Positions 1 through 64,000 of a stretch of DNA of 64,000 nt are shown piece by piece. This stretch comes from Bilabrum cf. latius. Lineage: Eukaryota. Each line of letters starts with the position of its first letter. Positions within the stretch are counted from its first letter, which is position 1. Under the pieces are notes generated by a model. That model made no database searches. It was given only the letters and a program-made list of their open reading frames with translations, and was not told the origin of the DNA. A program made the translations under genes and the position numbers. The stretch lies in assembly GCA_965178125.1 (NCBI GenBank), contig OZ237768.1, positions 620,001 to 684,000 of the forward strand, in the 5' to 3' direction.

Positions 1-3000
1 AGTGCCGATCCATGTTGCTTGCACCGGACCGGCTGCCAAGCCTATCTGAGGCCGCAGCTGTATGCTCATGGTACGCAGCTGGGATGTGCAGGTACTGGCG
101 AGATCTACAGCTGCCATGATAGTAGCAGTCAGCATTCTGACGGATGGTCGCATGACGCTTGAGGTGCCACCCGACAATCGTCCATCTTCCGGACGGACAC
201 CCATAGCTCCCCTGGGCAACCGAGTTGGCTATTGGCGAAACCATGCAAGCTTGAACGTTCCAGCGCTACCCTTGATCCTTACCGCTCTATACTTGGCGCA
301 TACTGCATCCACCACGGCCCCAATCCTGCGGTGCAGGCCAATCCCGGCGATGGGCCCGGCGAAGTCAGCGATCTTGTCGTAGCCGTGCAGGATGAGTGTG
401 AGCACGATCGAGTTGCCGAGGTCGACTGCAGCCGCTGACCGCGCCAGTGATTCCGTCGATCTTGCTACTTCAGATGGCAGTTCGTTTGGCAGCAAAAGTC
501 CAAGCTGACTGAGTGCGTCCCGACTTAACGAATCGCTACTGGCTGACCGTGTCGGTGTCGTTGCGTCCAGCTACCTCTAGTGGATGACTGCTGCAGGCAT
601 GATGGCTGCTGCTGCAGACTTGAGCTACTGCTTGCTGGCCTGAACAAGCTCGCTGTACGCAACCAGGGTGCTCCTGATGCGGAGCACTTGCTCCTGGAGC
701 GTCTGGGTGTCAACGATACGACGCGACAGTATCATTACCATGTACAGAGCTCCCGTGAAGATCGCCACGATACCCCCAAGCGACACGTCAGCGGGGTCAC
801 TATCTGATCCCAGCACTAGGGAGCACTTATCGAGTCTGGTGTTCTAAGAAAGGCCAACTGCCTCTCGGATCCACACGTACAATCCGACGGGAGTGCTGAG
901 TGCGACCAACACTCCGACAGTCAAGATCACGGGCCAGTTCCCATCGCATACGTGGAGCACGCCCACCAGCAGCTGGATTGCAACCAGTACCTGAGGCGCT
1001 TGATTCGACTGGCCCAGAATTCCTGCACACGACCCTCTAAAGGCCTAGAAGAGGAAGAGAAACTGGTACAGCACGTGCGAAATGTGAGCAGCTCCGTATG
1101 TATATAACGCACAGGCAGCACTGACCCTTTCCTACCGCATGGTCCACACAGCTCCAGCAACGCTCATGGAAAGGCCGCATGCGAGCAGCGGCAAAAATTT
1201 CAAAAGTATCAACAAACATGCTTGTGATTCATCCCAGGACGCTAGTCCAGATGCAACCTCGAGATTGAAAGCCTTCGCCCATTCAGTCATTCCGTTCTGC
1301 AGAAGTGCCACGCCCGAGAGCAGCAAGAGAAGACTCGAGCCAGCCGTGGTGCCTACAATTCCTCTGGCGTCGTCTTTGCGATCTAGGCTAGGTAGAACAT
1401 GCGCAGCGACTGACCCGCATCCCTCCGTCTCAGCTACACTAAGCTATTCCGCTTGCGGATAGCAGTGCCCTGCAAACGCCCCCATGTTCAGCGTGCCTGC
1501 ACCAATGTGGGCTTTACCAAGCACTCGTTGGAGCCACTTCGGCATGTCCTTTCCCGCCGTATCCCTAAATTTGCTTGGCGTAGGATAGACAGATTCATGA
1601 AGGTTGCTTACCACGGTGGCGGACGGCAGCAACGTGTCGTCAGGGCCCCCAGATAGATGCTGACCAGACGCGATCGCAGCAATTAGCACGTCGACTGCAC
1701 GCTCAATGGACAAGGCCAGCGGCTCTTTCGCTGTGAGAGTGATATCGTCATCGCATCGTAGAGGAAGAAACACGACCCTGCCAGCTGCTGCCTGAGCATC
1801 GTCACCTGTAGTGTGCGTACTAGAGTCGCTGACTTTGCCCGAGTCGGATGCGGTCCCACGCTCCAGCGGCCTGTCTCCGGTGGTCTGTAACAGATAAGGC
1901 ATATTGGGATCGTCGCTGGAGCTTTTTTTGGCGCGGCTGCTTTGAGGATAAGGGTGCCGGGCGGCACTGGATCTACCTGCATCCACAAGGCGGCCAGTTG
2001 CCTTCACAGCCACCGAAGTACGTTCGGCCTATGCGCTCTGCAGCGGTTCTCGCATCCATTTAATGAGTACAGAAAGCGACCTCAATACCTGCTGCAGGCC
2101 TGCCAAGGTCCGTCGAGATTCCGTGCTAGCTGTACTTGGCTTGCTCGAGCCACTAGATCCAATCCCCCGGCTGGAAGCGCGCGTTGGATTCCTAGAACCA
2201 GAACCAGCTGAGGAGGCGATGGAGCTGGCTCCCATTCCCGCAGCAAGTTCCCACGAAATACCGGCGTTAACACCAGCCTCTATCGCTTCCAATTGCCGCA
2301 ACAATCGGAGAACGGTGTCTTTGTCAGCTGCGAGCGAATGCTCAGCGTCTCCATGCGTAGGACTGCTGTCTCCCAAGATGTGCCTACGTGCGGGAGAGGC
2401 CATGCGATGACTGGAAGAAAGTCGCACCGCATGCGACACGCCCCCGCCGAACACGGCCCACTCCTGGGGCTGTTGCTGCAAGCCTAACAGCCCAGCCACC
2501 ATGGCAGTCTGCGACGAAGACGGGTACGACAAGCCGCCGTGAAGCGACACTCCCCGGTCTGAGGCTCGATTGGCTCCGGCTGCAAATCTACCGATGGCTG
2601 CAATGCACGCAAACAGATTGCACGTTCTAGTGAGTTTGGCGGTCGAAGGCGGCAGATTCATTGCCGGCGTGCGCATGCCAACCGCAGCTGTCCACACCGA
2701 TGTGCCCCCGCTTCCAGCTCCCAGCCTAGACGCGTCCAGCTTGTCAATCCGAACCTGCTTGCTCACAGCGGACCAGTTCGTGCTGGCCAAGTCGTACAGC
2801 GCTGATCTCTGGCTTTTGGTGAGCACTCCCACAGCCGCAGCACCGTCGGAGCGATCCGTTGAGCTGCTCAAAGCAGTCACATAGCTCTGGGATAGAGCCG
2901 GTAGGATGCCACGAGAGATAGCTAGAGCCGATTTGTACTCCCTGCGCAGGTGATGCGAGCCATGGGCGGGCGGTGCATCCATGGCCTCGCACAGCACAGT

Positions 3001-3158
3001 CAGCGCACGTCTGGAGGAGATCTTCCGCCGCCAACTCCGGCTCTAGGTCTGAATCCCAACTGCAGCCGAACTGGCCGGATCGGCTTCTTCCGGCTGTGTG
3101 CCAAGGATACCAGTTTGAACTTCCTCGCAAGCGCTGCCTGAGCCCTACTCAGCAACTT

Positions 3159-3192
<34 letters not shown>

Positions 3193-5787
3193 GGCAGAGG
3201 CAGCAGAGGCAGCAGCAGAGGCAGCGGCAGAGGCAGCGGCAGCCGCCACAGTATTAGCAGCAATAGCACGTTGTGAAGCTAGTACAACCTTGCTTAGAAC
3301 CGGGGGCGGCATGCTGACGTACAATTCGTCTCTTTCGCACATATGGTCTGCAGACACGGTGATTGCATGCATGTCGGTGAAAGTGCTCTGCACTGCATCG
3401 CTGGGCTTGCCTTCCCTGCTCGTCGAGCTGCTACCAGCGCGGGAGGTGCTGGAGCCAGTGCGCGTCGCTCCAGCTCCCCCGTGCGATAACGCGTGGCGGT
3501 TGGGAGACCGTCGGCTCGACTGGGCCTCTGAACGGCCCCGATCTGCAACACGTCTGGCGGACGAGGCGGGTACGCTTCCATGCGCGGACAGGGCCTGGCC
3601 TCCATCGGGCGCTGGCCCCGAAGCTGATGCTGACGCTGACTCTGATTCTGCCGCAGATGCAGACGACGCAGATCCATACCTCGGGCCCCCCATCTATCTC
3701 AACTTGGACGACTTGGAGCACGACACTGCCAGTATGACCGGCCTGGTCTCGAACGCGGTCACTCCAGCCTCCATGCACTCCCTGGCGAAAGGGGGCACCT
3801 GGTCCACCACCGAGTCGATGATCGTGCACTGCTGGACCATGGCATCTTGCTGTGCCCTCAGGAGCTCTTGTTCCCTGGATGACGCGATCCATCGGAGAAT
3901 TTCCTGCTCTGACGTCACAATTGCTCCGAACAGGAAGGGCACAGCGAGGGTAAACACCGCCACGTCCAGAACCGTCCCGATCCCGTTCAGCCCAAGAGGC
4001 GAGAAAAAATCGTACCTGTGCACGGGGGGCATGCTATCCAGGTGTGACGTGGCGAAGGGCCAGCCGTCTTGTGCGAGTGCCACACCAACGTGTGTGACGA
4101 GTGTCCACGCCAGGTAGGCCCAGTGGAGCCCCATCCACTGCCAGCAGATCCGGTCGAAATCGAACGGGACCAGGATCGGCCAGGAGATCCAAACGGGTAC
4201 GAGCAGAGTCACACCGCGCCCCGGGCTGACGACGAGATCGAGCACCGCTGCAAGGACTGTGAATAGCATCAGACTGAAGACTGGAAGCACCTGGCGCGCT
4301 GCCACGCGCATGGCAATCGATGACAGGTGCGCTAGCTCGATGATTCCATGCTTGGTAGCTCTAGAATTTAGTGCGGGGTCACTGCTCAGTGCATTCACGT
4401 TTCTCTCCCTGCTCGCACGAGCCTGGCAGGGGGATGAACGTAATTGTCGTTGCTTGGCGGTTGAAGCCCCGCTGCCTGCAGCAGCTTCGACCTGATGCCC
4501 AGCAGACAGAATCCCAGATCTATCGTTTGGAAGCGAACAATCATCGCTGTCTGAACTATCGCTGGAGCCGGAAAGGCTGAGGCTGTTCGAGTGCTGCGTT
4601 GAGGTGCGATCGCTTCGAGTCGTCGAGTTGCGACCATCGAGTGCGACCTGACCAGCGCTAGCTTGACGAGAGGTTGACGATTCGGAAGCGATGATCGCAT
4701 TCGCAGAGGCAAATCCTCCTGCAGTATTTGCACGTTGATGCGGTACGCTTCCGTATTCTTCCCCTTGTCCGCCACTGTCGGCAATAGCGACCCGATTTCG
4801 AGCCGAGGCAAACGCCGGTGCTCGTCCTTCGCAGCACGTGCAACAGTACCTTCTGATACACAAACGGCTACCGAATATGTTGTTGATGATACCAAATTGG
4901 TCATACCAGCCCTTCAGTGCATTCAGAACCAAAGCAGGGGAGTGCACGTAGCTAATGCTGGCTCGTCTACTTGTTACCGGGCGGTTCCCCACCATAAGGA
5001 CGTTTTCTGCTGTGTTCGTACTACTGGAAAGCGGTTTCGGCCGAGCAAATGAGTTGTTTGATTCTAGACGACCCTATGTAGCGACACTTCGCTTATTTGA
5101 AACGGACTTCTTTGAAGCGCAGCTCCCCACATGCTGCACACCGTGTCCCGATTGGCGGCACGAATCGCTTTGATTAAAGACAAACGACCATAATTGGAGC
5201 AATATTCTACTTATCACAAAGAAGAACCCCCATAAACACGCCATTCTCAACTGTAGCTGGGACATTGCTACCTTATCGCGCAGCGATTGCGGCGTTGTAG
5301 GCGTTCGTGCGACACGGCCCGCGTTCCCTGAACGGCCACAAGGGCGATCACTGCCGCCAAAATGCTTCTTTTTATACGTCTGGCTCTCACGCACATCTAT
5401 TGAATTCGAAGACACATTTTCCACCCGATGCAAGTCGCTCGAAATCCACAAAGCAGTTCGCTCCATCTCGATTGCAAGAATCAGAAGCAAAACAAAACAG
5501 CATATGCCAACGATCGGCAACATGATTGATGCATCCGACTGGTCCACTTCTAAATTTGGAGAAAAACCAGCTGTTGATGGTACAGGAGCTAACGCATACG
5601 AGCAGATTGCGGCACAAAACAGACACGTCAGGCATACATTGCTAAGGAAGAGGCCCGTATCGCCAGGATTGCAATTGATACACGGTAATAATGCTGATAT
5701 CATGATTATTGTGGCGTTCAGCTCGGTCGTCGTGTGGTGAATGGCGAATCGCAGGTTCTTGATCATCTCATCATCTTGCCGCCGCAT
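1..5787 (-). CDS. Multi-pass membrane protein with degenerate class III adenylyl/guanylyl cyclase-like domains (3' end runs off window; TAG=Gln)
   Basis: ORFs 5074-5787, 3694-4995, 3145-3693, 2029-2997, 1444-2013, 1132-1326, 625-816 and 229-495 are all in one frame, separated only by TAG (about 13). Two hydrophobic TM clusters. Cyclase-like segments 'LHGGLSY..MVAGLLG..QEWAVFGGGVSHAVRLSS' and 'LLPNELPSEVA..IVLTLILHGYDKIA..GP..VDAVCAKYRAVRIKGSAGTF'. Start codon uncertain. Confidence 0.6.
3161..3246. repeat. (GCA)n/GCAGAG microsatellite encoding an Ala/Ser tract of the minus-strand gene
   Basis: Direct GCAGCAGCA...GAGGCAGCA run. Confidence 0.9.
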
Positions 5788-6842
5788 CGCGTCAGCATCG
5801 TCACATCACCCTCTCCACAAGCATCTAGCATTCTGGTCGTCTGATTGTTACTACACAGAGTGGCGGTGGTTTCCCGCCTCCACCCTTCATCCCATGAGTT
5901 GTGTTGAGTTGGCCCCCTGGTCGGCCCGCCCCGGTTAAGCGCGGCATCATGCTAGCGCTGCTCTTGCCGGGGCTTATGCCGGGCAGGGGGTCGGAGGGTG
6001 CCCCCAGAACTAGAGCAATGGGGGCTTGGATGGTGGGTGGAACAGGATATCTTTGAGAGGTGTTCTGTCTTACTAATACTAACTTTGCTCCTCTGTCATT
6101 AGGTAAGAATGGCACGGGAGTGATCCGGTCCGGTGCGGACGGCTCGGATCAATGTTGCGTGCACTTGCAGCCGCTAGTGCCGTATAGGCCTAACTGGAAG
6201 TGATGTGCAGGCCTGGAGTTACTTGCGCGTAGTCTACCAGCCGCTAGGCGAGGCATACTCATACCATGCACCGCGAGTGCCATCAGTCCTGCCGCACGGT
6301 TGCCTTCGCAGGGCACGGGTGTCAGCGAGAGACCCACTTGCGCCTTGCTACTAGTCTAGTAGCGTCTAGATCAGATCTAACCCAGATCGGGCTTAGATCG
6401 CTATTAGCGGGCAGGGTCAGCTGTTCGCCCTTGAACGTTCGACTGTATCCGGTCTGAGGGTTTCGTCGCAAAACTTTGCCTCGGCGCCGGATGTGCACTG
6501 CACACTACTGAGACATCTGAGATACGTGCTGCACGCACTGTCCACTGTGTACACACTCGTCACATCCATTCCCGTGCTCATCAAGATGCATGTGGATGGA
6601 CCGAGGGTTATAATGCAGTGCACGAGCCAATAGTATGCTTCAAGTTGTCAATTTGCACGACCCCCGAGCTACCAGCCCCCTGCCTCCCTTTGCCCTCCCC
6701 CGATAGCTAACCTAGTGTGCCTGAGTGGATAATGTGGCGCGTAGCATGCGAAAATCGGTACACTTTGGATCAATGACGCTCACACATTTTGCCTCACCTC
6801 GAAGCACATCAATACCGTGAGAAGGCCAAGAGGTCATCCGCC

Positions 6843-9800
6843 TCACATGTACTGCTCTGCCTCATCATGTCTGCCCTACCCCTACAGCACTTGAATAAGG
6901 TCCCGCCTTCGTGAGAAATACACTGGATGGTACGTCCCGTGCTTGATCGCAGTGTACTCAAGCAGCTCTCTCATGGCATCAATGGCCCTGTCATACTTGC
7001 CCACCTATTGGCAGAGGTTTACAACCTTCCCGAGGTTGTCCACGTACCACGGTAGGTGCGTGCAACCGTTCGCCTTCAGGACCCGGTAGCACCGCTCGTG
7101 CAGATCAGCAGCCAAGCCAGGGTTTCCTGTCTTCACGCAGCATTCACAGACCTGGTACAGCATCTGCACGCTTGCCTCAGCCTCAGCCTGGCCTTGGCAC
7201 TCTTGATGCTTGGCATCGTACAGCTGCACAGCAACCATTGCCTGGTCAGCCATACCATGGTCGAGCCGGTCGATCCCGTTCAAATAGTCTGCCTTGCGCT
7301 GGAGCAGGTCAATCAACAGGCCATGGTCCACCTGTACACGACCACTAGAGCCAGAGACAGAGTACCTCGCAGCACTCCCTTCGGCACTCGGGGATTCAGC
7401 ACCACACTTTCCATCGGAGGCTCCTGCCCCGTTGCCCGAATCTCGCCTCGCTGCACTCCATTCATCACGAAGCAGTCTCTGGGCTCCATCAATCGCGGCG
7501 GTAAGGCAGCCATCCAGCAGGCGCAGCGCCTCGTCGTGATTGCCCAGGGCTTTCAGGCTTTGTATCAAGGTGATCAACGTCCCCTTGTACTCGGTATGCA
7601 GTGGACCAAGCCATCTTCCTTCGATATCTAAACACTCTTGCAACAGACTACACGCCTCCGAGTGATTGCTCTGTCTCTGCCGACACTCACCTAGATGATA
7701 GCACGACCGAGCATAGCGCAGTGAACAAGACCTATTTCTGCCTTTACCTTGCATGGATTGCCTGCACTCGCGAAAGGTCTCCGCGGCCGCATCGAGTTTC
7801 AGCATTAGCAAGTAGCACCGCCCAATGTTGAGCTCGCCATCCACGTAGTCTGGGTGCTACTTGCCAATCCTAGCTTTCCGAATGATCTGGCACTTTTGGT
7901 AGCTAGCCATCGCCTCCTCATACTTGCCTTGCTCTCGCAAGCACGATCCGATGTTGTTCAGGCAGCTGGCATACAAGGGGTGTGACGTGCCGACCGAACG
8001 ACTATAGGTCTACATGGCTCGCTAGTAGTACTGCATTGCCGCGTTGAGGTCTCCGTGTGATTCAACTAGGAAGGCACCGGTGTTTGACAGTGCGACACCG
8101 TACTGTGGATGCATCTTCCCGAGCACCAGTTCTGCAATATGAAGCGACTACTGTTGTAGGCGTAGAGCCTGCCTTGCTTCGCCCATACTACGCATGCAAA
8201 TCGCCATGTTTCTCAACGATGTGGCATACTCGTCGTGCTGAGTGCCATATAGAGACTTCCTAAGCTCTAAGCATTCTGAGAACAACTCCTTTGCCTCAAT
8301 GTAGTGTTCGGCTTGCTGCAAGCTTGCAGCAAGATTACTGACTGCGCTAACGTACTCTGTGGTACCCTTGCCGTATGCTCTCTCATTTATCTGCAAGCTC
8401 TTACGATAGTGTTGAATGGCCTCATCGTAGAGTCCCTGCTCCATCAAGCAGGTTGCCATGTTGTTCAGCACCTTGCTGCACTCAGTATCCCACTCACCAA
8501 GATGTTGCGTCAGAATTGCTAGACTACTACGCATTAAATCCATGGCCGGATCATACCTGGCCAGACTAGACAATGCCCCTCCCAACCTATTCTAGGCGGC
8601 TGCGTGCTAAATAGACCCTTTGCCGTGCGCGGTCGTCGCCACCCGCAGAGCTTCTACAAACGTGTCTGCGGCCTCATCCATGTTTCCCAGGGTGAACAGG
8701 CATGTCGCAAGCTTCGTTAACGCGGCCACGTACGGATCAAACGCCTTTTCTCGATCCTGCACCGGTGTTTCTGGTGTAAACTCGATCATGGTTCCCGTGG
8801 AGCGAGACATACGCTCTTGGGCACAGAGTGTGGCGGTGGCGATGCGCAAGGTGCGAAGGCCTGAGGACCGTACCGCAAACGAATCGATAGACCTGATAAT
8901 GGATGCAGCGCCCTGCGACCCGATTCGCTGCATGTGCGCCAGCTCACGGAACAGAGGGGCAGTAGCCTCACGACTCGAGAGACGGTGGACGCCTCCAGAA
9001 GCGGCGATGTCAGTTCCAACGCAGACGGTTGGCCCGTCATCCAGTCCCGCTGATTGGTGCCCCTGGGAAGCTGCAAATGCAGCCATACCTTCCGCTAGCA
9101 CTGATTCGCACAGGTTGTGAACCCCTTTGGAAGCATAGCAGTAGGCAGCGAACAGAACACACGGCGGCGTAGGATTACTCTTCCCTGCTAGTCGGTGGCC
9201 GGCCAGCTGAATTGAATTGTAGGCCAGTGACGTACTTCGAATACCAAACACAAGCGCTTTCTATACTTGAGCTTTGACGCTGGTGGCCGGATCCAACGCG
9301 TCCACAAGCAGTCTTGAATGTCGAAGGCCGAGGCCTACCGAGTGCATTGCTCGCTTGATCGTGTCACGATGCCGCGCAAGATGTACGGCTGGGTCGAAGC
9401 CTTCGTCCATGCACATCTCAATGGCGATTTCATCTCTGTAAGCTTCTACACATCGGCCTCTGGCAGCTGCGTATAGCCGCTTTATCAAGGCAGATGCCTA
9501 TCGTCTTGCTTTACCACCGTCGCTTGCCATCATTATCATGTCAGGGTTCAGCCCCCCTGACTCTGCGTTCGTTGACAATCGCCGCAGATGATCGCTGGCC
9601 TCCGGAGGAAGCAGGCACGCGAGGGTCACCCCTCCGCAGTAGAGCCATTGGGGGCAGGACACAACGGCTACTGCGCCTGTCGTCGCTCCACCGCTTGCAT
9701 TACACCGTGCCACTACACAACCAGCATCTGGGCACACTTGAAGGTCGCTAGAATCGAACCGAATCCGTGCACTGCTGGCAGCGGAACTACCATGAAGTCC

Positions 9801-11993
9801 ACCTACACTTCTACAGCCGTGATCGTCGCACCACCCGTTCAGTGCTGCAGCAAGCGAATCCAAACGGTCAGACTCGGGCAGGAAATAACATCCATCAAAC
9901 ACAGGTAGCTGCCCAGTCTCAACACTGCCATTGATGACCATCCAAACTCGCGGAGCCGCATCCGTCGACTTCATCCAGTCTATCCACACGACGTCTGGGA
10001 TCAGCAGCCGGTGGGTGTCCAGCACCATCCGCTGCCCATTGTCCAGCTGATGGAGCTCCACGTCGAAGGGCAGATGAAACGTGAACTATGCATCCTCTGA
10101 ATCGACGACAGCATGAGTCTTTCGAGGCAACGCCAGCACGGCACGATAGTCTAGGACTGCTCCAGAGGCCCTGATCGAGTCTGCCACCGCCCTATCAAGG
10201 TCAAACTCCTTGTTGGAGAGCTCCTCATTCGAAGCAGAGGCAGCAGATGGACCAGACTACTCCACGAGGTGCCCAGGATCTAGGACCTTTTCCACCTTGC
10301 GTAATGCGGCTGGATCCATCCCCGCAACGCGCATCGAATCGACGATAGATGGAGGCTCCACAGGTGTCGGAGTATCACCCTCCACCTCACCAGAGGATCC
10401 ACGGCAGGCAATAGCAGCCGTATGAGCAGCCGAATCACGGTACAAGTGTTCTATGACATGAGCCCTTCCTATGTACTGGCCTACGAAGAAGTGCTTGGCC
10501 AGTGGCTTGACCACGTCCTCCAGCTGCTCCTCGTCCCAATGAGCCGACCTGCCACCATCCGAAGACCCGACTCGCAGTGTTGTGCTACTCCACGACGTTG
10601 GATCGGAGCGGCAATAGCCCCTGATACGAACCAGAGCAAATACCTGGACACGAATGATGATACTTTGACCACCAGTGAGCCGAATGGGCAAGTCAACGCA
10701 CTGCAGCAAGGGAGTTGATACGTGCACGCTGTCCATCGCATGCACCCACCGACTCGCCGCCGCCTCTCGCTTGGCCGCCTTGGCTGCCATTCGATAGCTT
10801 CCATAAATTTGATGCTTCTCGTTGTCGAAAGGGAACTTCAAGAAGAGCCCAAGCGGCTCATGTATGGCCTTAACTCCGCCCGCGATGCCACCAGCCTCGA
10901 TGAACCTATTCCCCGTGCACTCCTCGATGGCTCGCTTGTCAGCATCGGTGAATCCAACGGGATTCCCACTACTCGCAAACTGCATGGCCACAGCTGGGAA
11001 GCCACTAAGTGCGCTCATCACATCGGCTCCAAACTCAGCACCGGTTTCCTGCAGCTTATCCTTTCGGATTTGCTGCTGGAATGGATACAGGGCGATTTCC
11101 CGCTTGGCTTCCTCAAAGGCTGTCTGCCTGCTGGAGCCTTCACTGTATGCAGCGCCTTCTTCTTCACCGGGCCCATGTGTGGTCACTGGCGGATCGGTAT
11201 GACCCGGCGCCGTGCTTCCGCTCGACGAGTCTTCGCTCCGTGTGGCTCGCGAGGCCATAGGCCTCTGCGACGGTGGCGCGTGGAGATCGTCGGGATACAT
11301 GGAGGTCCCCGCCCCCGATGCTGCAGGTTGGCTTGCAGAGTGGCTGGGTGTTTTACTACCGGCAGGGATAGAGCCGGATGCACATGATGCGCTGCTGTCG
11401 CTGCTGTCGCTGGCTGCACATGTGGTTTTGAGAGAGAGAGGCTTCTCCGGGGCCTGGCCCGCACTTGCCGCTGCCAGCGTCGAGCCGCCACCAGCAGCAC
11501 CATAGGTGCTTTTCACAGAATCTGGTGGCTGTGAAACATGTTTACCAGCTTGGTTCGGTAGGAACAAATTGTCGCATTCTGCCCCATCGATGCCGGCGAA
11601 TCCTGACTGTCCAGCCAGAAGTCGAGCGCCTGATCTAGCCCCTGACCCCGCTGTAGCTGCTCTGCATGTGGCCATAGACTTCTACAAGCATGCCGTTCTA
11701 TCACTCTCGCCATGTGAAGCGGCTTCTACATCTCTTGGTGCATCGCATCCGACGGCTGTAGTGCTACCGAGACAGCTTGCTGGAGCAGCACGCTGGTCCG
11801 AGTCAGATACGCTGCCAGCAGAAGAATTGCACTCAGGCTGACGCTAATTTCCTCTTGCAATCGTATTACATGAGCCGGATTCCATCTGCGGCCTCAAATT
11901 ATCAGTACTGGAGTCTGCAAAACCTGAACTTTCTACTCGAGCAGTCTATTGCGTCTCGCCTGCTGAGATGCGGGCCAAATGCTGCCTCTCCAT
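6843..11993 (-). CDS. CLU (clustered-mitochondria) domain + kinesin-light-chain-type TPR repeat protein, paralog 1 (~1716 aa, TAG=Gln)
   Basis: One frame from ATG 11993 (alternatives 11885, 11675) to TGA 6843-6845, with about 16 TAG and no TAA/TGA. CLU motifs 'GLFLKFPFD..Y..AAKAAKRE..STPLLQCVD..TLRVGSSDGG' and 'FDVELHQLDNGQRMVLDTHRL'. TPRs such as 'LNNMATCLMEQGLYDEAIQHYRKSLQI'. Confidence 0.85.
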
Positions 11994-12307
11994 GATAAAA
12001 CCAATATAATACTGCTATTAATTTTGAAGTTGAGTAGCTCAAGAACAAAATGGGAATGCAGCACGCTTTGTTGACCTTGCTTAGCCAGTGCAACCGTCTA
12101 AATCGATCTCATCGAACCAATCAAGTACACGCGTAATGAAGCAGACATATAAACTTACCTTCTTGCAGTTTATTTCCGGTAGAGTATTTCTCTATGACTG
12201 TAAGTAGATCTAGCGTTCCAGATATCCGATTCCACGAAACAGAAAATAGAAATAAATACAGAAATACAGAAATACATTGTTGGGTAAAGATTCCGTAAGC
12301 ACCCAGA

Positions 12308-49455: not shown

Positions 49456-50075
49456 GCGGGAGCGGAAAGGGGGGCCACCCGGCTTCTGCAATGGAGCCTT
49501 TCGGAGCGGGTCCTGTGAGCTGAACTTCGAGGCGGGCCGATGTGGTCTCATGTCTGGTTGGTCGGCCATCTGCGCAATGCTGGCCCAATCACACGCATTG
49601 AAGTCCCACGAATCACATGCTGGATCCATCGTGGTGGCCGCAATCTTGCCGTAGCAATCGAGTTTGTGATAGGTGTGCGTTCTGTCCGGACACTCCCAGA
49701 GGCAGGCGCCCCCCTTTTGGAGCACCCACTACCTTAGCTCCCCCAAACAGCCGTGCAGTGGCCTAATCTAGCGGTATTCGTCTGGTCCATCCGGTCTCTT
49801 CGTCTCTTGAACACTGACCACGACCTGTTTGGGGTGCAAGCCACGGTGGCCTCGTTGCCTTGCTCTAGCTTACGTTCGCCAGGCGACCTGCCTGTAAGCC
49901 CCTGGCACGAAGCATTTGACATCTTTGCAATACACAGGTAATGTAGTGCCTTGAACCTAGCTAGCGATGCTGCAGACCCCGATTGTGAATCTGTCACCCT
50001 CTTGCGACCAAGTGTGCGACCACACATTTTTGATGTCGAATTCCAAGACAAATTCTAGCGCTGCTCAGTAGTCAC

Positions 50076-53528: not shown

Positions 53529-53820
53529 ATGGTGTGTCGGCTACCCCTGTGGTAGATGCGGCTGGAGTGTCGAGCAGCAGGACCGATCGCCTCGACCCGG
53601 GAGGCTCGCATCGGATGTTTCTGAAAACAGTCCCCGCCATTTACGTGGGATTCAGACCAATACAGTAATTGCTTCCTCTCGAATAGGCCCGGGGCAGCAT
53701 TCAGAAATCCGAATCCAATTTTACAAGCGCTGCGCTGAGGCCAGTCACGACGCCGCTCACTGCAGTACTTCCAACTGTTTATCACAAAGATCGCTTGCTG
53801 GTGTAACGCGCGTGACTTGC

Positions 53821-55524
53821 ATGCACGGATGTCGAATCACTCGGCTATTCCACAAGACGATCATGCGCGGGCGATCCATGCGAACTTGGGCACCAGTGTT
53901 CGCCTCAAGCAGGTACACCGTAGGCCTCCCTGAAAAACACACGTTTCCGATGTAGCGCTATGAACAAGTGCAACACCTCTTGCGAACCCTGCAGCAGTCG
54001 ATGCCTCTTCGAGTTCTCGAGCCTGAAGCTATCGCTGAGGTCGACGTGGCGACTGCACACGACTCAGGCTGGGCCAAACGGTACGTGCAAGGCAATCTAT
54101 CGCACGATGAGCGCAGGGATATTGGCTTTCCGTGGTCGAAGGAGTTCGTGCATCGGACACTAGCGATCACTGGGGCGACTGTGCACGCGCAGGAAGCTAG
54201 CCTGCGGGATGCCGCTCTTGTTGCAGCTTCGGCCGCAGTTCCTGAAGTGAAACAAGCCATACAGCTAGATGCCAGTGACCCGAACCATGGCCCTGGCGTG
54301 TTTGTCGAACGCATCGGTCGCCCCCCTTACCTTCGAGAGCAGCCCGAGCACCTGCTCGACTCGGTTGCTCGCCTCGACGACCCGGAGCAATTCCCCGCCG
54401 GCCTGGGCATGATGGCCTGCAATGCGGCGGGAGGCACGCACCACGCCTTCAGGGACAGGGGGGAAGGGTACTGCATCTTCAACGACATCGCGGTGGCAGT
54501 GGCACTGGGCATGCGCGGCATGGACGCAACGCTGGAGCCAGGCGCCGCGACGAGGTTCCGCATCCGGAGAGGCCGTAGCCTGGAAGAGCAGGGCAGAGCG
54601 TCCGACGTGCTGTGCGAAGTGAACGTTCGCCTGGTTCGCTCGGCGGTGATTGACCTGGACGTGCACCAGGGCAACGGCACGGCCGCCATGCTCTCGCCGG
54701 GGGCACAAGGAGAACAAGGGCACGGCATGCCGGCAGACACGGAGGTGGGACAGGCAGGGCAGTGGGCATAGAACAAGAACAAAGCCGGTAAATCTGGCGT
54801 AGGAAAGAAGAAAGGAGGCGGTGCGTCGGGCGTCACCCCGCGTCCATACGACCTTGAGGCAGGGAGGCACTGGGCGAGAGAAACGTACGGGGACGAAAAT
54901 GGAGGCAGTGGTGCCCCCACCGGGTCTCGGGGGGCTTTCACGGCCTCGCTGCACGGAGACCGGAACTATCCCTGGCGCTCCCGCGTGCTGGGCTCCTTCG
55001 ATCTTGGCCTGCCGGACGATGCGAGCGAGGAACAGTACCTGGACGGTGTGGAGCTGCTGCTGCAGAAAGTGGGGGCCTGGCTGGAGGCCAGCTGGGAGAT
55101 GCAGGCGAGGGAACAACGGGGGGGGATGGGAATGGTCCCTGTGATGCAAGCACGAGGGGGTGCATCGCACGATCGTGCAGGGTACAGCGGGGTCCGGGTC
55201 AGCCGCGCGTCGCCTCCGCAGTCCGGGGGAGGAGCGCCCTGCGTGGACTGCGAGGTCGACTTGGTGCACTACCAGGCGGGGGTCGACCCGTTGAGGCAGG
55301 ATCGGTTGGGGCGGCTCGGTGTGACGAGGACGTGCCTGCACCGCAGGAACGAGATTGTGTTTCGCGCTGTGGAGGGTTGGGGAGTGCCTTGCGTGGTGAG
55401 CATGGGGGGAGGGTACAGCCGGCCGATCGAAGCCTCCGTACGAGCACATGGGGATGTTTTTGCGCAGGCTGGGGTGGCCAACAGGCGCATGGCGGAGGCC
55501 AGGGCACGGACTTTCGGGATCTGA
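53821..55524 (+). CDS. Zn-dependent histone deacetylase-family protein (HDAC11/AcuC-like), possible mitochondrial presequence
   Basis: HTFPM(TAG)RY, GGTHHA, GYCIFNDIAVA, IDLDVHQGNGT, SLHGDRNYPW, YQAGVDPL..DRLGRL and MGGGY in one frame across TAGs at 53953 and 54769. TGA stop. Confidence 0.88.
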
Positions 55525-55645
55525 TCACCAGTCTGGTTTTCGATATCGGTTGCGAGCAATTATTGCAAAACACGTCCTCGATGCAAGTTACTCCCGTAGC
55601 GATCCAACCGCGGATGATCTGCTCGCCTAAAGTCGAGAAATAATC

Positions 55646-57771
55646 ATGTCGTCTAAGAAACGCCTGCTTTCAGAGGATGAAGACTAGGTTGTGCCTCTGC
55701 ACTGGTGAGAATTTTGGCTGCTTCTGCCAGCTACGCGCCGGGCTTCGCATTCGCCATGAGAATCTTTCGGCGTCCGCAAAATATATTGGGTGTTCGGGTA
55801 GTTTATTGTGCCTCGTCCCAGTAATTTGCAGCTCCCAGGGCCATAAATTGAGTTGTATGGTTGCGTTGGACGACAAGCCCCTAGACCATCGTCGCATCCT
55901 CACTGTTTCCTCTCGACTTTTAACGTCGCAGGACTGAGTAGGGGTCGTACAGCGTCGGTCACATCCTGAACGACTTGTGCGCGGCCTGCTGGTTTTCCTA
56001 CCTGCTGATCTATACGTAGAAGGCGGTCGGTCTATCGCCGGTCCAAGCGGGCATCTGCATGTTTTCCGGGCAGATTGCAGACGCGCTGGCCACACCAGCA
56101 GTTGGTGTGCTATCAGACGCAACTAAGGCCTCTGAATCTTGCTTAGCTTTGCGTCTTGGGCGCCGCAAGCTGTGGAACCTTGGTGGAGGCCTCCTCGTGA
56201 TGTTGTGCTACGCTTGCGTGTTCATGGTGCACCTCGGCTGCGACGTGAACTCCGCGCTCAGAACGGCCTACTACGCCATCATGGCCAGCCTCTTCAACGT
56301 GGGCTGGGCCGCCAACCAGGTCTCCCACATGGCCCTGGTCCCCGACCTGGCAGAGGAGAGGGGCATGCAGGTGCGACTCAACTCGATGCGGTACGCAGGC
56401 ACAGTCGCCTCGAACGTGCTCGTGTTCGTCACAGCCACGCTGCTGCTGCGGACCGGAGGCGACGAGGCTGACGAGGACCCTCGGGTGTACAGGCATCTGG
56501 CCATCGTCGTTGAGTGCGTGGGAGTCACGTGCAGTTTGGTGTTCCTGCTGGGCACCCCGGAATGGGGCCACGAGGACGACGACGAGGGCGATCCTGCTTC
56601 AGGGAACAACGGTTTGGCCAAGGCTCTAATGGATGGTAACGAGGGAGCAAGGTACGGCGTGACGGACAGCCCATCGACAGACACGGGGGGAGGCGACACA
56701 GAGAGCGTGGCGGACAGCGTGGTTCCATTCGGGGAGATGAAGGGGTTCCAATCGGGCTCTATAGTCGACAGCGCGGGGGTTGGTGGGGGAGGGGGTTTTG
56801 GGCGCGGGGATGACGAGGAGAAGCACAGGGGCGGTTTCTATTCCGAGTCCTCCTCGGTGGCAGGGTCTGTAAACGCGGGCGACGACGACGACGGGGATCT
56901 CGATATCGAGGAGGGTAAGCGGGACCGGTTTGCGGGTGCACTGCACGATCGCGCACCCGACGCCGTGCTGACGGCGGTGGGCGGGGGCGGCGACGGCCCC
57001 TCTCGGCTGGCGCTGGACTCGTCCAGGGCCGCATCATCCGATGGCAAGGGCACCTCGCTTCGCAGCGCATCGGCAACGTCGGCCAAGAGCGGCAAGAGCA
57101 GCAGCAGCGGCGGGCTCAGGAGGCGGAAGAGCTCCGGGAGGGTCAAGAAGACGTGGAGCTGCTGGTTCAAGGAGCCCACGTTCTACACTGTCGGAGCCAC
57201 GTACATGTGCACGAGGCTGGTGGTGAACACGAGCCAGACGTACATCCCCTTTTACGTGACAGAGACCATGCAGCTGGACGCGGCCTCTATTGCCACAGTG
57301 CCTCTGCTCGTGTACGTGGCTGGCTTTCTCTCCGCTGCCCTCATGCAGTGGGCTAACGCAAAGCTGGGCAGGGGCTGGACCTACAGCCTGTCGGCCGGTC
57401 TATCCGCAGGGGCAGCCACCATGATGCTGGCGCTCCCTGGGCAGCACGCCTGGATCGCGTACGTGCTGGCGCTGCTGCTGGGAGCAGGGAACGCGGGCAT
57501 GATGGTGACGAGCGTATCGCAGGAAGCAGCGCTAGTGGGCGACAATGTGGAATCGGGGGCCTTCGTGTACGGAGCGCTGTCTCTGCTGGACAAGCTCTCG
57601 TGCGGGATCGTGGTGCTGGCGCTGCAGATCCTGCAGCAGCAGCAGAGCGAGGCAGCGCTGCCGCACTTCTTCCGTCTCGCGGTGAGCACGGTGCCTCTGG
57701 CCGCGGCGGTGGTCGGCGTGGTATTCTGCTTCGTGAGCGAGGCGCAGCCGAGGCTGAAGAGGCACGTGTGA
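55646..57771 (+). CDS. MFSD12: MFS transporter, MFSD12-like; exons 55646-55704 and 55932-57771
   Basis: YSVGHILNDLCAACWFSYLL, GQIADA.ATP.VG..SD, FNVGWAA.QVSHMALVP, YMCTRLVVNTSQTYIP, ESGAFVYGALSLLDKLSCG. The first TM helix lies upstream of TAG 56017. GTGAG..CGCAG intron. Confidence 0.85.
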
Positions 57772-58281
57772 GGGCGGTGTGTTGAATGCCTGGTGGTTGG
57801 CTGGTTGGTGTGCAAGCGTGGCTGATGGCTTTGCGAAGGGTTCGGTACGCCGATCCCGCGACACAGCCAGCGGTGCGTTTGTTGTACCAGTCGATCCGGC
57901 CGGTCGGGGGGATGTGTGGTTCGCACACAACTCCATGTGGCGGAGCTAAGCGCAGTACCACACTGACGCCTTTGCTCGCCAAGCCGCCATCCCCGCAAGG
58001 GGGGCAGCGTCTTGTACCTGCCTTCCCTGGGGGTTGCGGCTGCGCGAGCTCATACTTAGTATGGGTATGCCTAGTGTGGTATTTTCGCGGCTTATGGTCA
58101 TACCTGCTACGGATTCTGTTTTGCAATCCATGGATCCATTTCACAGATCTATGGGATAGCTCCTTTTGCCGCAGCTCGACCACCAGGCCATGATTGTACG
58201 GCCGCGCCTGGGAAATATTTATGACTAGATCTAATCAAGCGAGCATTGGCCGGCTGTCGCCGAGCAGTAGTTGCCAAGTAC

Positions 58282-58391
58282 CCGGCGCCGTGAAAGGTCG
58301 GATTTGACCGACCGACCGGTATCGCCGATATCGGTACCATGAGTTCACCTTACCGATTCTCGCGTACCATTCAAGTAATCCTAAAATAATA
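58282..58391 (+). mobile_element. Solo ~110-bp terminal fragment of the piggyBac-like element
   Basis: Near-identical to 18890-~19000, including the TIR; preceded by GTAC (58278-58281). Confidence 0.88.
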
Positions 58392-58392
58392 C

Positions 58393-60693
58393 TCACCGAA
58401 GCATCCGCAATCCTCCTTCAGTGCCTCCGCCTGGCCCAGGACGTGCCCCTCCTGCACCCATCCCTCCCCCATATCCACCTCCAGGTCTCGGGGGTCCTTG
58501 CCCACCTGCCATCGGGACCTACCCATAGGCCGCCCCAGCTCCAGGATGCCCAGCAGGCCCCCTACCAGCCCACCCGGGGCCGCCTTGAGGAGGCCCCCAC
58601 GAGGCAGACGGGCCTGAAGACGATGTAGACGACGCAGCAGTGACCGGCATGCCCATGCCCATGCCCACGGAGCGGAACGACCCGGGGCCGGGAGCCCCAC
58701 GGCTAGGCACACCAGCTGCCGCGGCGGCTGCAGATGCAGGCGGCAGCGAAGGCGCCCCGCCTGCGCCACCAGCCCCGGGCCTACCCCGGATCGTCTCCCC
58801 GCCCAGCCCCTGCAGCACGAAGCCTCCACTCGCCGACCCACCGCTAGCACCACCCGCAGCCGCCCCCGCTCCCATCCCGACCGCTCCGCCCACCATCTCC
58901 GCCGGTTTGGCCATGTCCGCCATCCGGAGCCCCTCAAGGACTGTGGACATCCTCCTGTCGCTGCCCGCGTAATCGTACTGCGACCTCGTCTCGCCGGGGC
59001 GGGGGGGCAGCCACAGCTTGCAGGTGTTGTCGTTGGACCCAGTGGCAAGGACGGACCCAGAGGGGTGCCAGGCCATGGTCCAGATCCCGTTGTCGTGCGC
59101 ATACGGCACAGCTGCGAGGGGGGCTTCCTGCCCGGGGGTCCAGTAGGCCATGGCCCCGTCCATGTGGCCTGTGGCGAGCAGCCGGGGGATGGTGGGGTGC
59201 CACGCCAGGGCCGCAGGGATGGTCCTCTCCATGCGGGCTGTGATCGTGTCCGCGTCCAGCTTGGTGTGACGAGTGATGTGGTCCGGGAGGGGCCGTCGGG
59301 ACCTCGAGATTCCAACGGGCTCTTTGAGTCTCCGGATGTCCGCAAACACGATGGTCCGGTCGTTCGAAGTGGAAGCGATGCTGTACTGGTCCGTGGGGCA
59401 CCAAGCCACTCGGCTGACGTCTTGCGAATGAAAGCTACTGCGCGGGGGCAAGACAGGGGTCGGTGGATAGGCAAGGCAAGCGGAATGGCTTGGGGGCGGG
59501 CCGCCTACAAATGGGAACACAGACGAGAAAACGTTCACACGTGCCAGCAGACCGAGGCATGGCCACAGCGGGCGCTGCCCCGCCCACAAGAGCGAGAGCG
59601 AGAGCGAGCGATAGCCCCGTAACAATGCAAGAAGCACGACGCTCTTTTCTCACGTAATCGCCAGCTGCTTGCTGGTCCTGGGATCCCATAACCGCACGGT
59701 ACAATCGCTGGAGCAGCTCGCCAGCAGCGACATGGTCGGGTGCCACTCGGCGGCGCGGCAGTTGGACCGATGCCCCTCCAGCTGGCTCTCGGGGGCGAAT
59801 TTCCTCAGGTCGACCACCTTGATCATGGCGTCGTCGCTGCACGTGGCAAACTTGTGGCCGCTGGGGCTGAGGCTCACTCCACGGATGGATTCCTTGTGCA
59901 GCTTGGGAAGCGCATTCAGGTACAGGAAACCCGTGGCCTTCCAGAGGCGCACCTCGCCCTGGTCGTCAGCCGTCAGGATAGCGGGATCGCCGGCATCGAA
60001 GGTGGGGTGCACGGCCATGGCACGCACGGAGGCATTGTGCGCGGCCTTGGTCCACTCGTGGTGGAAGGTGCGCCCATTCCAGCGGCACAGCTCGCCGTTC
60101 ATCATGCCGCTGAACAGTCCGCGGCCGTCTGGTGACCAGTGGATGCAGAAAACCTTCGAACGGCTGTGGGAGAGAGCATAGCCAAACATTCGCGTATTTA
60201 TTCTAGACGTGATGTCACAGTGGGGACCTTCTACGCCCGGAGCGCTCATGTGTCGCTTGTACGAAGAGTGCGGGAGGATGGCTCGTTCGTCCGAAGCCGC
60301 TGCTCGGTACGGCGCGTCCTGCTCGCTCGCCAGAACCAAGCAAGTATCATCTTCCCCTCCCCTTCTCTGCGCTGACCGGCCTTGCGCGCCTCCTTGACTT
60401 CCCATGGTACCTTGTCGCGATCCGTATGCTGCACCGGTGCTCGGTCCTCTCGGCCCGCTTTGATAAAATCCTCCCGAAGGTGGTCTAGGTGCACCACCTC
60501 TCATCTGCGCAGGAGAGCCAAACGGTGGGCGGTGCGACCCGCTTGCGCCGTACGAAGCACCAGCCGGTGGTCTGGCGGCAAATTGGGGCGGCCTCCCACC
60601 AGCCGGTCTCGGCCAGCCAGCTCCACCAGGCCTGGGCATGCCCTAGCCATATCCCGAACCATATGAATGGGAAGGGCCTGGGCGGCCTTGCAT
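58393..60693 (-). CDS. WDR33: WD40 pre-mRNA 3'-end processing factor WDR33/Pfs2/FY-like; intron 59438-59653
   Basis: WSPDGRGLFSG..NGELCRWNG.TF, AHNASVRAM, HKESIRGVS.SPSGHKFATCSDD, WHPTMSLLAS, PYAHDNGIWTMAWHPSGSVLATGSNDNTCKLW..PRPGE, and a Gly/Pro-rich tail. TAGs at 60643 and 58519 read through; TGA at 58393-58395. Confidence 0.85.
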
Positions 60694-60881
60694 GTGTTCT
60701 AAATGAGCAACTTTAAGAGATTTGAGGATTGTTTGTGATTCCGAACCCGCCAGCTGCGGCTGGTTCTCATCATGCAACAAAATGCACAATGCCACAATGC
60801 TACAAGCAGCTTGCAGCTGCGTGGCGCGCAAATCAAATAGTTGATTGCAAGACGATGCAGGGCTCCACAAAGCCTTCCGCT

Positions 60882-63449
60882 TCAGGAGCTCCCTTTGCTC
60901 CCATCGCCTCCCTCCCCGCTGCCTCCCGATCCACCATCCCCAGGCCCGCTCCCACTCCCACCGCCCTCGCCGCCCGCCCCATCTGCCTCCATGGGCGCCT
61001 ACCCACCTGCACCACCCTGCGGTGCACCTTCCGACCTGCGCCTGCCCTCCCTCGCCTGCATGGCATCCAGAAAGGCACCCGTCGAGTCGCCCGCAGCCAT
61101 CGCATCCGCGCCGTCGGACGGAGACAGCCCCGCGGCTGCGAACAGAGATGCGGCTCCGGGTCCATCCAGGGCCCGCCCGAGGTTCGAAGCGGCCTGGGCG
61201 GCCTGCGGGGAGGAGAGGGCCCTCCGCAGCTGCTCGGTGTTCCTCAGCTCTGGGGGCAGCAGCGGAAGCAGACTGGCGACCGCCTCGGGGTCGGAGGCCA
61301 GTCGTGCCGCCGCGTCCCCGCTCCACACCATACCCAGGGGGGCCCCCCGGGACTGGGCCTGCGCCTGTGCCTGTGCCTGCATCATGGCCATGAGCTGCTG
61401 CTGCCACGCCGGTGCCATCCCGCCAGCACTCGCCACACCGGAAGCGCCCCCGGTGGAGGACCCGGCCGCCTGGTTGTGCTGCTGCTGGTCCAGGCCTAGG
61501 TCGTCCAGAGCCCCCGCCAAAGCGAGGTCAAGATCTGCGGTGTGGCGAGTGCGGTGGGTCATGGGGGCGATGACAGTAGCGGGGCGGCGGTGGAGAGAGA
61601 CGGGGGGTCCAGCGCGGGGAACGGGCGGTGGGCACGGGTGCACCGGGAGCTGTGGGGTGCTAGCGTGAGTGGCCGTGGGTGAGGGTGAGGGGGAGGGGGA
61701 GGGGGAGGGGGAGGGCTTGAAGAGATTTGAGTGCGCGGTGGAGACTCAACGGTTATGTATTGAGACTCAACGGACACCCTAATCTCCCATCTAGCACAAG
61801 GCCCCCGTCCCATTCCATACCCCGACCAGCCTCAGCCCCAGCCCCTGCCTCTGCCACCACTCCGCACCTGTCCCATCGCACCAAAACATCCTGCCTGCTT
61901 GCCCGCACCACTCGCTGCAAGCAGTTTCGACTCAAGAAGAGCTCTTACCGTCTCCGCCCTCGCCTGCGCTGCCATCGGGATGCTCCTGCTCGTCCTCGTC
62001 GTCATCATCGCCCTCTCCATCCACGTACTAGACTTCGTCCTCGTCCTCCTCCAGCAATGAGGCAGCAATGGCCTGCTGCAGAGCTGCGATGGAACAATAG
62101 GGAAGTTGGAAGTAGAGAGAAACAGGGTGGAAACGGGAACCGGCTAGACCTGGACGAGAGCCACAAAGCGGCCACCTACCCACCCACTGACCCTCCCTCG
62201 AAGAGCAGAGCAGAGCAGAGCAGAGCAGGAAACCGTTCCAATTGCCACGCAAACAAGTCACTATACCAAGGCACGATAAAGACCAACTCGTCACGATCTA
62301 CTCACCATCATCGTCGTACAGCATCTCTTCCGCGCCGTCCCCGCCGCCGTCATTCTCCGCCGACTCCCCACTCGCGCCCCGGTCCCCCCCCGCGTCACCA
62401 GCAGCCCCCGGGGCCGGGGCAGCGGCAGGCGCAGAGGACCCCGGGGCAGAGCTGCCAGCGGGAGCCTAGGAAGACGAGGAAGAAGAAGCCGAGGAGGAGG
62501 ACGGTCCGGAGGTGGAGGTGGACGCAGATGCCCCTGCCCCCGCTGCTGCACCCAGGCCTGTGGCCGCCGCCGCACGAGGGCCAGACGCAGCGCCCGCCCG
62601 ACCGGCCCCGGCGCCCATGCCAGCTCCCGCCCCCGCCCCCGCTGCGCCGCCACCCATCATGCCAAGCACCGCGGGATTGATGCCCAGGCGAGCCAGCTGC
62701 TCCATGCTCACACCGCCGGCGCCACCCATGCCCCCGCCAGCGCCGCCCATGAGCGCCGCCAGCCCGCCCATCCCACCCATGCCTCCCATCCCTGGCATGC
62801 CCCGGGGGGCCGCCATGCCCTCGGGCATGCGGCCGTCCATGAGGCGCTGGAACTGGCGCGCGCTCTCGCGTTCCTGGTCCAGTCGCTCGGGAGTGGACGG
62901 GCCCTGCAGCCAGAAATAGAACTGGCGGTCGCCTTGCGTGGTCTGCACGGTAAGCTCGCATACGCGAGCAGTCGGATCGGGGCAGCGGACGCGACGGAGC
63001 TTGCCGGCGCCCGGCAGGCACTCGAGGTCGATGTCCGGCCGGGACTGCCCTTTCGGCCGCCAGCGCACGCGCGGCGCACTTCCAGGGGACTCGAGAACGA
63101 TCTACAGCTCTCCTCGGGCTTTCTACGGGATTAGGCGCACCGCGCGTCGCCCTTCAGACATGGGGGCGCTTCGAAGCGAAACACGTCCGGCTTGCAGAAC
63201 TACGGCTGCGCCTCGCGACTGCGAATGGGTTCAACGAGCTTAGTATGGCAGAACAACATGATGCCAGGTTATATCAGGCTGATAATCGCTCGGACTATCG
63301 CTCGAATATCTGCGCTAGCACGGCCACGTCGCTCAAAGCTCGCAACCGAGCAAGCACACTCAATTCGAAAGTCCGTATAAACGCATCGCTATTCAACTCA
63401 CCCTTCCCCGCTCTTCCTATTGCGCCTACTGAAACAGATTTGTTGCCAT
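60882..63449 (-). CDS. ADRM1: Proteasomal ubiquitin receptor Rpn13/ADRM1 (about 4 exons)
   Basis: Pru domain (LQAGRV..P(TAG)KARGEL..RWRP..ARVCEL..FYFWLQ) and DEUBAD-like C-terminus (LLPLLPPE..LRRALSSPQ..ASNLGRALD). Exon 1 is 63402-63449 and exon 2 starts at 63218; the later intron boundaries are approximate. TGA at 60882-60884. Confidence 0.75.
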
Positions 63450-63602
63450 CCTTGCAGTATTTCCAAACTATCCTTGTTGGGCGGGCGTTCCTGGTCGATC
63501 TCGCGATGTGGTATTTGATCGGTTTGTAGCGTAACAAAATCACCACACCCCCTCGGCGTGTCTGTAGCTATTTTCTCAGCCTTTTAGTCGTATTCCAGGC
63601 AG

Positions 63603-64000
63603 ATGAATAGAGCTAGACGTTCATTATCAGTGTTTGGAAGCAGGTGTCGCGATATTGCCTCGCAGGTTGAGGCTACCGTGCCGCTGCAAGCCATCGCGTA
63701 TGTGCCTTGCAGGCAGATATGCCAGTGCACACGAACACAGCGGTCAACCAGCGCAATGCATCCCAGCCGCGAAAGCAACATGTCACGGAAGTTGCATTCT
63801 TCCGTGCGGGCTCGTTAGGTAGGTTCGGGGGGACCAGGCAGTGGCGATGATGACGCCGGCAAGGCCCTGTTCGGCCCTGGAGCAGCTGGAGCCGGATCTG
63901 ATGGAATCTCAGACGCAGAATCGGATGATGAGCTAAAGATGTTGCAGGAAGAAGCCCGCTGGGCCCAAGAAAGGGAGCAGATGGCCTCTGGCACGGGGGA
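63603..64000 (+). CDS. 5' part of a hypothetical protein (possible mitochondrial presequence), runs off window
   Basis: ATG 63603 with an Arg/Ser-rich start. After TAG 63816 the frame stays open (acidic segment) to the window edge. Confidence 0.4.

Follow-up and report, generated by a model that had tools for sequence, protein, structure and literature searches.

In-frame TAG codons of a Bilabrum cf. latius nuclear contig are very probably read as glutamine

The stretch analysed here comprises 64,000 nucleotides of Bilabrum cf. latius (GenBank assembly GCA_965178125.1, contig OZ237768.1, positions 620,001 to 684,000 of the forward strand; hereafter the window, numbered from its first letter), and its subject is the meaning of the TAG codons that lie in frame within its genes, which an initial annotation had proposed to be read as glutamine. 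The window is eukaryotic nuclear DNA, with a GC content of 53-67% (4-kb windows) and no N bases. A Pfam scan found a domain in 9 of the 16 proteins scanned, from the families Hist_deacetyl, MFS_2, WD40, Rpn13 Pru, SNF5, TPR_12/TPR_10 together with CLU, LRR_6, DDE_Tnp_1_7 and the eEF2 domains; the other seven matched no family. For MFS_2, WD40 and Rpn13/ADRM1, the open reading frames (ORFs) given to Pfam spanned 55924-57771 (plus strand), 59650-61527 (minus strand) and 61932-63230 (minus strand), respectively. The housekeeping genes that had been said to carry TAGs were recovered by Pfam as members of the HDAC, MFS, WD40 and Rpn13 families, with the names MFSD12 and WDR33 holding only at the family level.

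At the left end, an open frame of 1935 codons (1-5805, minus strand) runs off the window; it contains 13 in-frame TAGs and has no Pfam match. Two paralogous genes follow, TPRa (6843-12017, minus strand), which consists of a CLU-like N-terminal region and a TPR_12/TPR_10 array, and TPRb (14112-18824, plus strand), with 17 and 21 in-frame TAGs, respectively, many of which fall within the TPR arrays. The two proteins are identical at 519 of 1510 aligned residues, and both genes end with TGA. Downstream lies a piggyBac-like transposase ORF (19330-21255, minus strand; DDE_Tnp_1_7, E 2.9e-12), which has seven in-frame TAGs, no TAA or TGA within the frame and a TAA stop; this element, or a domesticated copy of it, appears to be adapted to the host code. 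It is followed by an LRR_6 protein ORF (22852-27840, minus strand; six in-frame TAGs, TAA stop), the eEF2 gene (28300-31077, minus strand), which ends with TGA past the conserved C-terminus, a low-complexity ORF (31751-35776, plus strand; six in-frame TAGs, TGA stop), a two-exon gene without a Pfam match (37169-39961, plus strand; six in-frame TAGs) and a SNF5-domain ORF (40238-43495, plus strand; four in-frame TAGs, TGA stop).

The right part of the window begins with fam1-3, three tandem and near-identical paralogs (45013-51640, plus strand), each with two in-frame TAGs and a TGA stop. They have about 430 codons each, are spaced by about 2.7 kb and match no Pfam family. A diverged fourth copy, fam4 (52194-53528, plus strand), has four in-frame TAGs in its exon, and shares with fam1-3 an N-terminal 'ELRKEQISLQLEPLR' block and a C-terminal 'SIASLEREVDRLRDLYG' block. 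Further genes encode a histone-deacetylase-domain protein (HDAC; ORF 53386-55524, plus strand), an MFS_2 transporter (MFSD12-like; 55602-57771, plus strand), a WD40 protein (WDR33-like; 58393-60693, minus strand; spliced coding sequence of 694 amino acids with two TAGs) and Rpn13/ADRM1 (60882-63449, minus strand; spliced coding sequence of 582 amino acids with seven in-frame TAGs), all of which end with TGA.

Under the standard code the longest ORF of the window has 925 amino acids, whereas treating TAG as a sense codon yields fused frames of 1935 (13 TAGs), 1724 (17), 1662 (6), 1570 (21), 1341 (6) and 1085 (4) amino acids. The coding frame of ten ORFs (12,210 codons) contains 79 TAGs but not a single TAA or TGA, compared to a mean of 99.5 TAGs, 44.5 TAAs and 222 TGAs in the two other frames of the same ORFs. 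The in-frame density of TAG is about four fifths of the background, whereas at the density of the other frames 266.5 TAA and TGA codons would be expected in the coding frame, against none observed. As the ten ORFs were picked as free of TAA and TGA, this zero is partly circular; a single frame of 1570 codons without either codon at that density is nevertheless far beyond chance. Addition of the smaller ORFs (fam1-4, the 37169-39961 gene, seven sites in Rpn13 and two in the WDR33-like gene) raises the total to about 100 in-frame TAGs, a few of which belong to introns or to stretches by which an ORF is extended upstream; in ORF 52107-53528, for example, the intron 52103-52193 takes up three of the seven TAGs. 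The earlier figure of more than 80 in-frame TAGs is therefore fair, and the individual sites quoted with it (TAGs 14796, 15387 and 52359, and the CAG at 45268 in the same 'GAA xAG ATA TCG' context as 52359) proved exact.

The length of ORFs is by itself no test for TAG and was set aside as such, since in this GC-rich window ORFs also grow when TGA is read as sense (the longest reaching 1577 amino acids), whereas reading TAA as sense lengthens almost none. It is domains, homologs and RNA that single out TAG, rather than ORF length. If TAG is counted among the glutamine codons, the ten ORFs use 306 CAG, 117 CAA and 79 TAG, a share of about 16% for TAG. In eEF2, presumably a highly expressed protein, all 25 glutamines are encoded by CAG, with no CAA and no TAG, as one would expect if TAG were a minor synonymous codon.

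TAA and TGA still terminate translation in the window, in agreement with the initial claim that the other stops are retained. Among 16 gene ends, 14 are TGA and two are TAA, with one ORF running off the window. The only in-frame TAA (38828) belongs to the 37169-39961 gene and lies within a predicted intron of 171 nucleotides (38700-38870, GTGAG..CGCAG). Four C-termini are backed by homology, those of eEF2, TPRa, TPRb and HDAC; all of them end with TGA, and no TAG intervenes between the stop and the final conserved residue. In TPRa, two TAGs that lie 10-12 codons ahead of the stop are inside a repeat conserved in TPRb, which indicates that TAG is read through close to the 3' end.

A search of sequencing runs revealed four DNA runs (X1-X4) and three runs from two other studies (X5-X7) that match the window, none of the matching runs being recorded as RNA. 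DNA run X1 and runs X5, X6 and X7 were compared as assembled contigs over 52000-64000. At six joints of runs X5-X7 the ends are GT..AG or CT..AC, and X1 has none of these joints; five are shared by X5, X6 and X7, and the sixth is confined to X5. They correspond to 52103-52193 and 55704-55930 in plus-strand genes, the latter being the intron of the MFS_2 gene, and, in minus-strand genes, to 59438-59653 in the WDR33-like gene and 61535-61948, 62084-62305 and 63219-63401 in Rpn13. The six introns start with GTAAG, GTGAG or GGTGAG and finish with CAG or GCA, although the joint 55704-55930 fits equally well when cut one base further right. Introns in the window are 91-414 nucleotides long and contain TAGs themselves. 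Runs X5, X6 and X7 behave as RNA, and the description of the organism as intron-bearing is borne out by these canonical GT..AG introns. Seven more joints, with sides of 20-24 letters, lack GT..AG or CT..AC ends; they were taken for repeats or other organisms and were not used.

At least 13 in-frame TAGs lie within the RNA pieces with no difference from the DNA, and two further TAG sites of Rpn13 fall in RNA pieces by comparison of coordinates. All four exonic TAGs of fam4 are within RNA contigs of the three runs, and TAGs 53953 and 54769 of the HDAC ORF are on an RNA contig. Moreover, some TAGs are on contigs that are themselves spliced, such as 55939 and 56017 of the MFS_2 gene and 58519 and 60643 of the WDR33-like gene, so that several TAG-bearing contigs are not stray DNA. 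No base difference between RNA and DNA contigs over 52000-64000 is listed at any in-frame TAG of a supported coding sequence. One TAG only shows a base difference, that at position 53414, which precedes the HDAC domain; the difference is confined to the DNA run, where it is found on short contigs with three to four other differences, which we take for paralogous copies. Because at least 13 in-frame TAGs are unchanged in RNA contigs, the TAGs are neither spliced out nor edited, and the check suggested along with the initial annotation, whether UAG is kept in mRNA, gave a positive answer.

Two side observations concern the same runs. At 58308-58391 and 53384-53449, the DNA run has short contigs of high depth with several base differences, which are probably dispersed repeats or paralog copies. 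In addition, the DNA runs share one organism label (A), yet the runs with spliced transcripts, from two other studies, are labelled differently (B and C) while showing no difference from the window; it is possible that mixed cultures contain the organism or that it is recorded under different names.

The identity of the amino acid was addressed by columns of aligned homologs. When short proteins were searched with an alignment of the N-terminal parts of TPRa and TPRb, 12 fragments were obtained, which share 38-88% identity with TPRb in the best local alignment. In the multiple alignment of this family, the column of TAG 14796 ('GRxPAFEAAKR') has glutamine in 4/4 other members and that of TAG 15387 ('DKExLQD') in 5/5, and TPRa also has glutamine opposite both of these TPRb codons. 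Columns with an invariant residue in at least four other members served as a control: outside the TAG sites, TPRb agrees with the family in 79/80 of them and TPRa in 80/83. Only two TAGs fall in such invariant columns, and both face an invariant glutamine. Outside this family, TAG 52359 of fam4 aligns with CAG in 3/3 paralogs (45268, 47933 and 50606), in the motif ELR[KR]E-Q-ISLQLEPLR. The paralog evidence on which glutamine had originally been proposed is thus upheld.

A broader test used the TPR repeats. The best 150 proteins of a library-wide search, in which only the TPR array was matched, served to fill repeat columns rather than to establish orthology, and gave 1270 local domain alignments. 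A depth of at least 30 was reached in 12 of the 38 TAG columns of TPRa and TPRb, and the likelihood over these 12 columns is -31.3 for Q, -31.6 for R, -32.2 for K, -32.8 for E and -36.5 for L, a weak fit to glutamine. A search of solved structures gave no match for the piggyBac-like ORF.

The ends of public protein fragments may carry a further trace of the same code. Fragment P0277 of the TPR family (110 amino acids, from a 15.8-kb contig) terminates where 6/6 other members have glutamine ('IRVQVF'), and the eEF2 fragment P0038, 91% identical to the window protein, terminates just before a glutamine encoded by CAG in the window ('...VVIKQEEGE'), a position at which several eEF2s of the bicosoecid clade also have glutamine. 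Both ends would fit relatives with TAG at glutamine positions whose proteins were shortened by gene calling under the standard code. Altogether, the alignments make glutamine the best-supported meaning of TAG.

The affinity of the organism was assessed with eEF2. Among the matches listed, the best named ones are Bicosoecida sp. CB-2014 (65%) and Cafeteria roenbergensis (63%). A quick maximum-likelihood tree was built from the window protein and 114 of the 120 listed matches, those outside 820-1000 amino acids being dropped (P0001-P0003, P0055, P0059 and P0090). The window eEF2 and P0038 together form a long branch (0.56) inside a clade of 45 rows (Shimodaira-Hasegawa-like approximate likelihood ratio test, 96) that includes both bicosoecids, whereas the rows of the labyrinthulid Aplanochytrium, ochrophytes, oomycetes and Sphaeroforma lie apart from this clade. 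On this one gene and its best listed matches, the working placement is a bicosoecid-related stramenopile, and by the same sequence comparison the organism is clearly neither a fornicate nor a ciliate. As its eEF2 groups with Cafeteria and Bicosoecida sp. and not with fornicates or ciliates, an independent origin of UAG as glutamine is the simplest reading, which supports the independent reassignment that the initial annotation had suspected.

Close homologs of the N-terminal domain of TPRa and TPRb (P0272-P0283) are represented in public data only by fragments of 81-284 amino acids, from contigs of up to 15.8 kb. A search for proteins of near-full length with the N-terminal region of TPRb gave a single distant match (P0271), and a metagenome scan with TPRb found only a distant TPR locus (L001, 24% identity). 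This pattern suggests a clade of uncultured relatives whose genes are mis-annotated under the standard code.

We conclude with high confidence that nuclear translation in this organism reads UAG as glutamine, with UGA as the main stop and UAA also terminating, that is, NCBI translation table 15. By analogy with other lineages that use UAG for glutamine, a cognate tRNA-Gln with the anticodon CUA would decode UAG specifically; such a tRNA would be one mutation away from tRNA-Gln(CUG). According to the report on Iotanema, the tRNA-Gln(CUA) of Tetrahymena reads UAG but not UAA (PMC5304391). An eRF1 with weakened recognition of G at the third position would, again by analogy, cease competing for UAG, and in Iotanema an exchange T32G in the GTS motif of eRF1 is proposed in the same source as the loss of affinity for UAG (PMC5304391).

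Several points weigh against reading UAG as glutamine. ARAGORN found no tRNA gene in the 64-kb window, nor does the window contain eRF1. The RNA evidence consists of assembled contigs, in which rare edited forms would be hidden. Only three TAG columns are in strongly conserved contexts; the likelihood over the TPR columns barely parts Q from R, K and E, and two of the 12 columns are dominated by leucine (71% and 79%). In alignments with solved structures, TAG is set opposite D in Rpn13, A, N or R in HDAC and T in MelB, all of which are variable positions, and these alignments are uninformative. The argument from fragment ends is indirect, being drawn from protein sequences only. Finally, the ORFs were defined with TAG as sense and the gene ends number 16, so that additional use of TAG as a stop would go unnoticed.

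This last point leaves room for a dual role, in which TAG specifies glutamine inside genes but also acts as a stop near some 3' ends, as is reported for some ciliates. Rpn13 and the WDR33-like gene would suit it, since about 40 codons ahead of TGA both have a TAG, within a tail of low complexity, and with gene ends set by reading through TAG, a TAG stop would escape notice. However, the four homology-backed genes end with TGA and have no TAG past the last conserved residue, and the TAGs just ahead of the TPRa stop sit in a repeat conserved in TPRb, so that we regard a dual role as unlikely. Still less probable is another residue as the meaning of TAG, for example Leu, Glu, Lys or Arg, or ambiguous decoding by near-cognate tRNAs. 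Nuclear codes with UAG as leucine or serine do exist in other lineages (PMC11687900); R, K and E are within 1.5 log units of Q, and the leucine-dominated columns point the same way. Against it stand the two TAGs in invariant columns, which face glutamine in 9/9 residues in a family that the window proteins follow in 159/163 control columns, the match of TAG with CAG in three paralogs, and an overall likelihood for leucine that is 5 log units below that of Q.

The idea that the TAGs are not translated at all, because they lie in pseudogenes or unrecognised introns or stem from RNA editing or assembly errors, is largely refuted and now has hardly any probability. Nothing specific speaks for it beyond the existence of introns that contain TAGs. 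Decay would not keep TAA and TGA out of the same frames (0 against about 266 expected), which makes pseudogenes unlikely; moreover, the affected genes include single-copy housekeeping genes, spliced RNA contigs from two studies retain the TAGs with no differences and no joints around them, and the DNA run agrees in sequence with the three RNA runs. Equally improbable is a code in which both UAA and UAG mean glutamine (NCBI table 6), with TAA merely rare in a GC-rich genome. In its favour, a joint change of UAA and UAG is the usual case (PMC5304391, PMC11687900). However, TAA is absent from the coding frame of 12,210 codons, compared to 44.5 in the other frames and about 35 expected at the in-frame to off-frame ratio of TAG; two ORFs end with TAA, TAA as sense lengthens hardly any ORF, and the lone in-frame TAA lies inside the GTGAG..CGCAG intron. 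UAG alone as a glutamine codon accordingly stays the preferred reading.

Some features of the window stand apart from the genetic code. Within the low-complexity ORF 31751-35776, at about 33100-33750, a 13-residue unit (GGRGAAGVFDPE-type) is present in 16 perfect tandem copies. The 9-mer GTGACGAGT occurs at 20 sites on both strands, compared to 0.52 expected from shuffles, among them 4094, 24898, 25636, 32783, 33824, 35054-35362, 43274 and 59266, and is embedded in the core TGTGACGAGTG at 19 of the 20. Coding DNA contains it in both directions, with 'GVTS' or 'TRHT' as the resulting peptides, and two introns contain it too, so that it looks like a motif at the DNA level. The palindrome TGACGTCA was considered as the source of the recurrent GVTS peptide and rejected, with two matches against 0.72 expected.

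Changes of nuclear codes are rare, and a change of UAG without UAA is rarer still; lineages recorded with UAG as glutamine number one fornicate and three ciliate ones in the consulted parts of PMC11687900. A further independent case in another supergroup-level branch would add a data point on the co-evolution of tRNA-Gln and eRF1, and, as the genome is GC-rich with TGA as the main stop, it bears on how the capture of UAG relates to stop-codon usage and base composition. In practice, gene calling under the standard code will shatter the proteins of this organism and its relatives, which biases metagenome and phylogenomic data sets. The literature, whose coverage here is incomplete, yielded no account of a stramenopile with a reassigned nuclear stop codon, so that an earlier report is possible. 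On balance, we lean slightly towards this being the first such reassignment in stramenopiles, an independent change of UAG to glutamine in a deep, fast-evolving bicosoecid-related lineage that has a GC-rich genome and mainly TGA stops, and common to its uncultured relatives, which would share the code as judged from their homologs in databases, only short fragments, two of them ending at conserved glutamine positions.

The code variant itself is already known, and it is the lineage that is new. The closest parallel is the fornicate Iotanema spirale, in which UAG means glutamine and translation still ends at UAA and UGA (Panek et al. 2017, PMC5304391). In both organisms UAG alone is reassigned, to glutamine, and serves as a minor glutamine codon, with a share of about 8% in Iotanema and about 16% in the window. 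However, Iotanema is a metamonad whereas the eEF2 of the window is stramenopile-like, and its main stop is UAA (104 of 119 ends) in place of TGA (14 of 16). The same codon with the same new meaning is also described in ciliates, namely Protocruzia tuzeti and two phyllopharyngean lineages (McGowan et al. 2024, PMC11687900), where independent origins are already documented. Compared to these ciliates, the window has ordinary GT..AG introns of 91-414 nucleotides, a GC content of 53-67% and an eEF2 that groups with bicosoecids. The codes that assign UAR to glutamine (NCBI table 6), listed in the same source for many ciliates, ulvophyte green algae, Hexamita, Streblomastix and an aphelid (PMC11687900), likewise turn stop into glutamine, presumably via a mutated tRNA-Gln, but they also reassign UAA, whereas TAA in the window lies outside coding frames and ends two ORFs. 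By contrast, in an uncultured rhizarian and in Scotinosphaera, UAG means leucine and serine, respectively (PMC5304391, PMC11687900); there, too, UAG has changed separately from UAA in a nuclear code, but the conserved columns of the window have glutamine. Set against the known cases of UAG as glutamine, this one differs in its lineage, in its GC-rich genome and, relative to Iotanema, in ending most genes with TGA and in a higher share of TAG.

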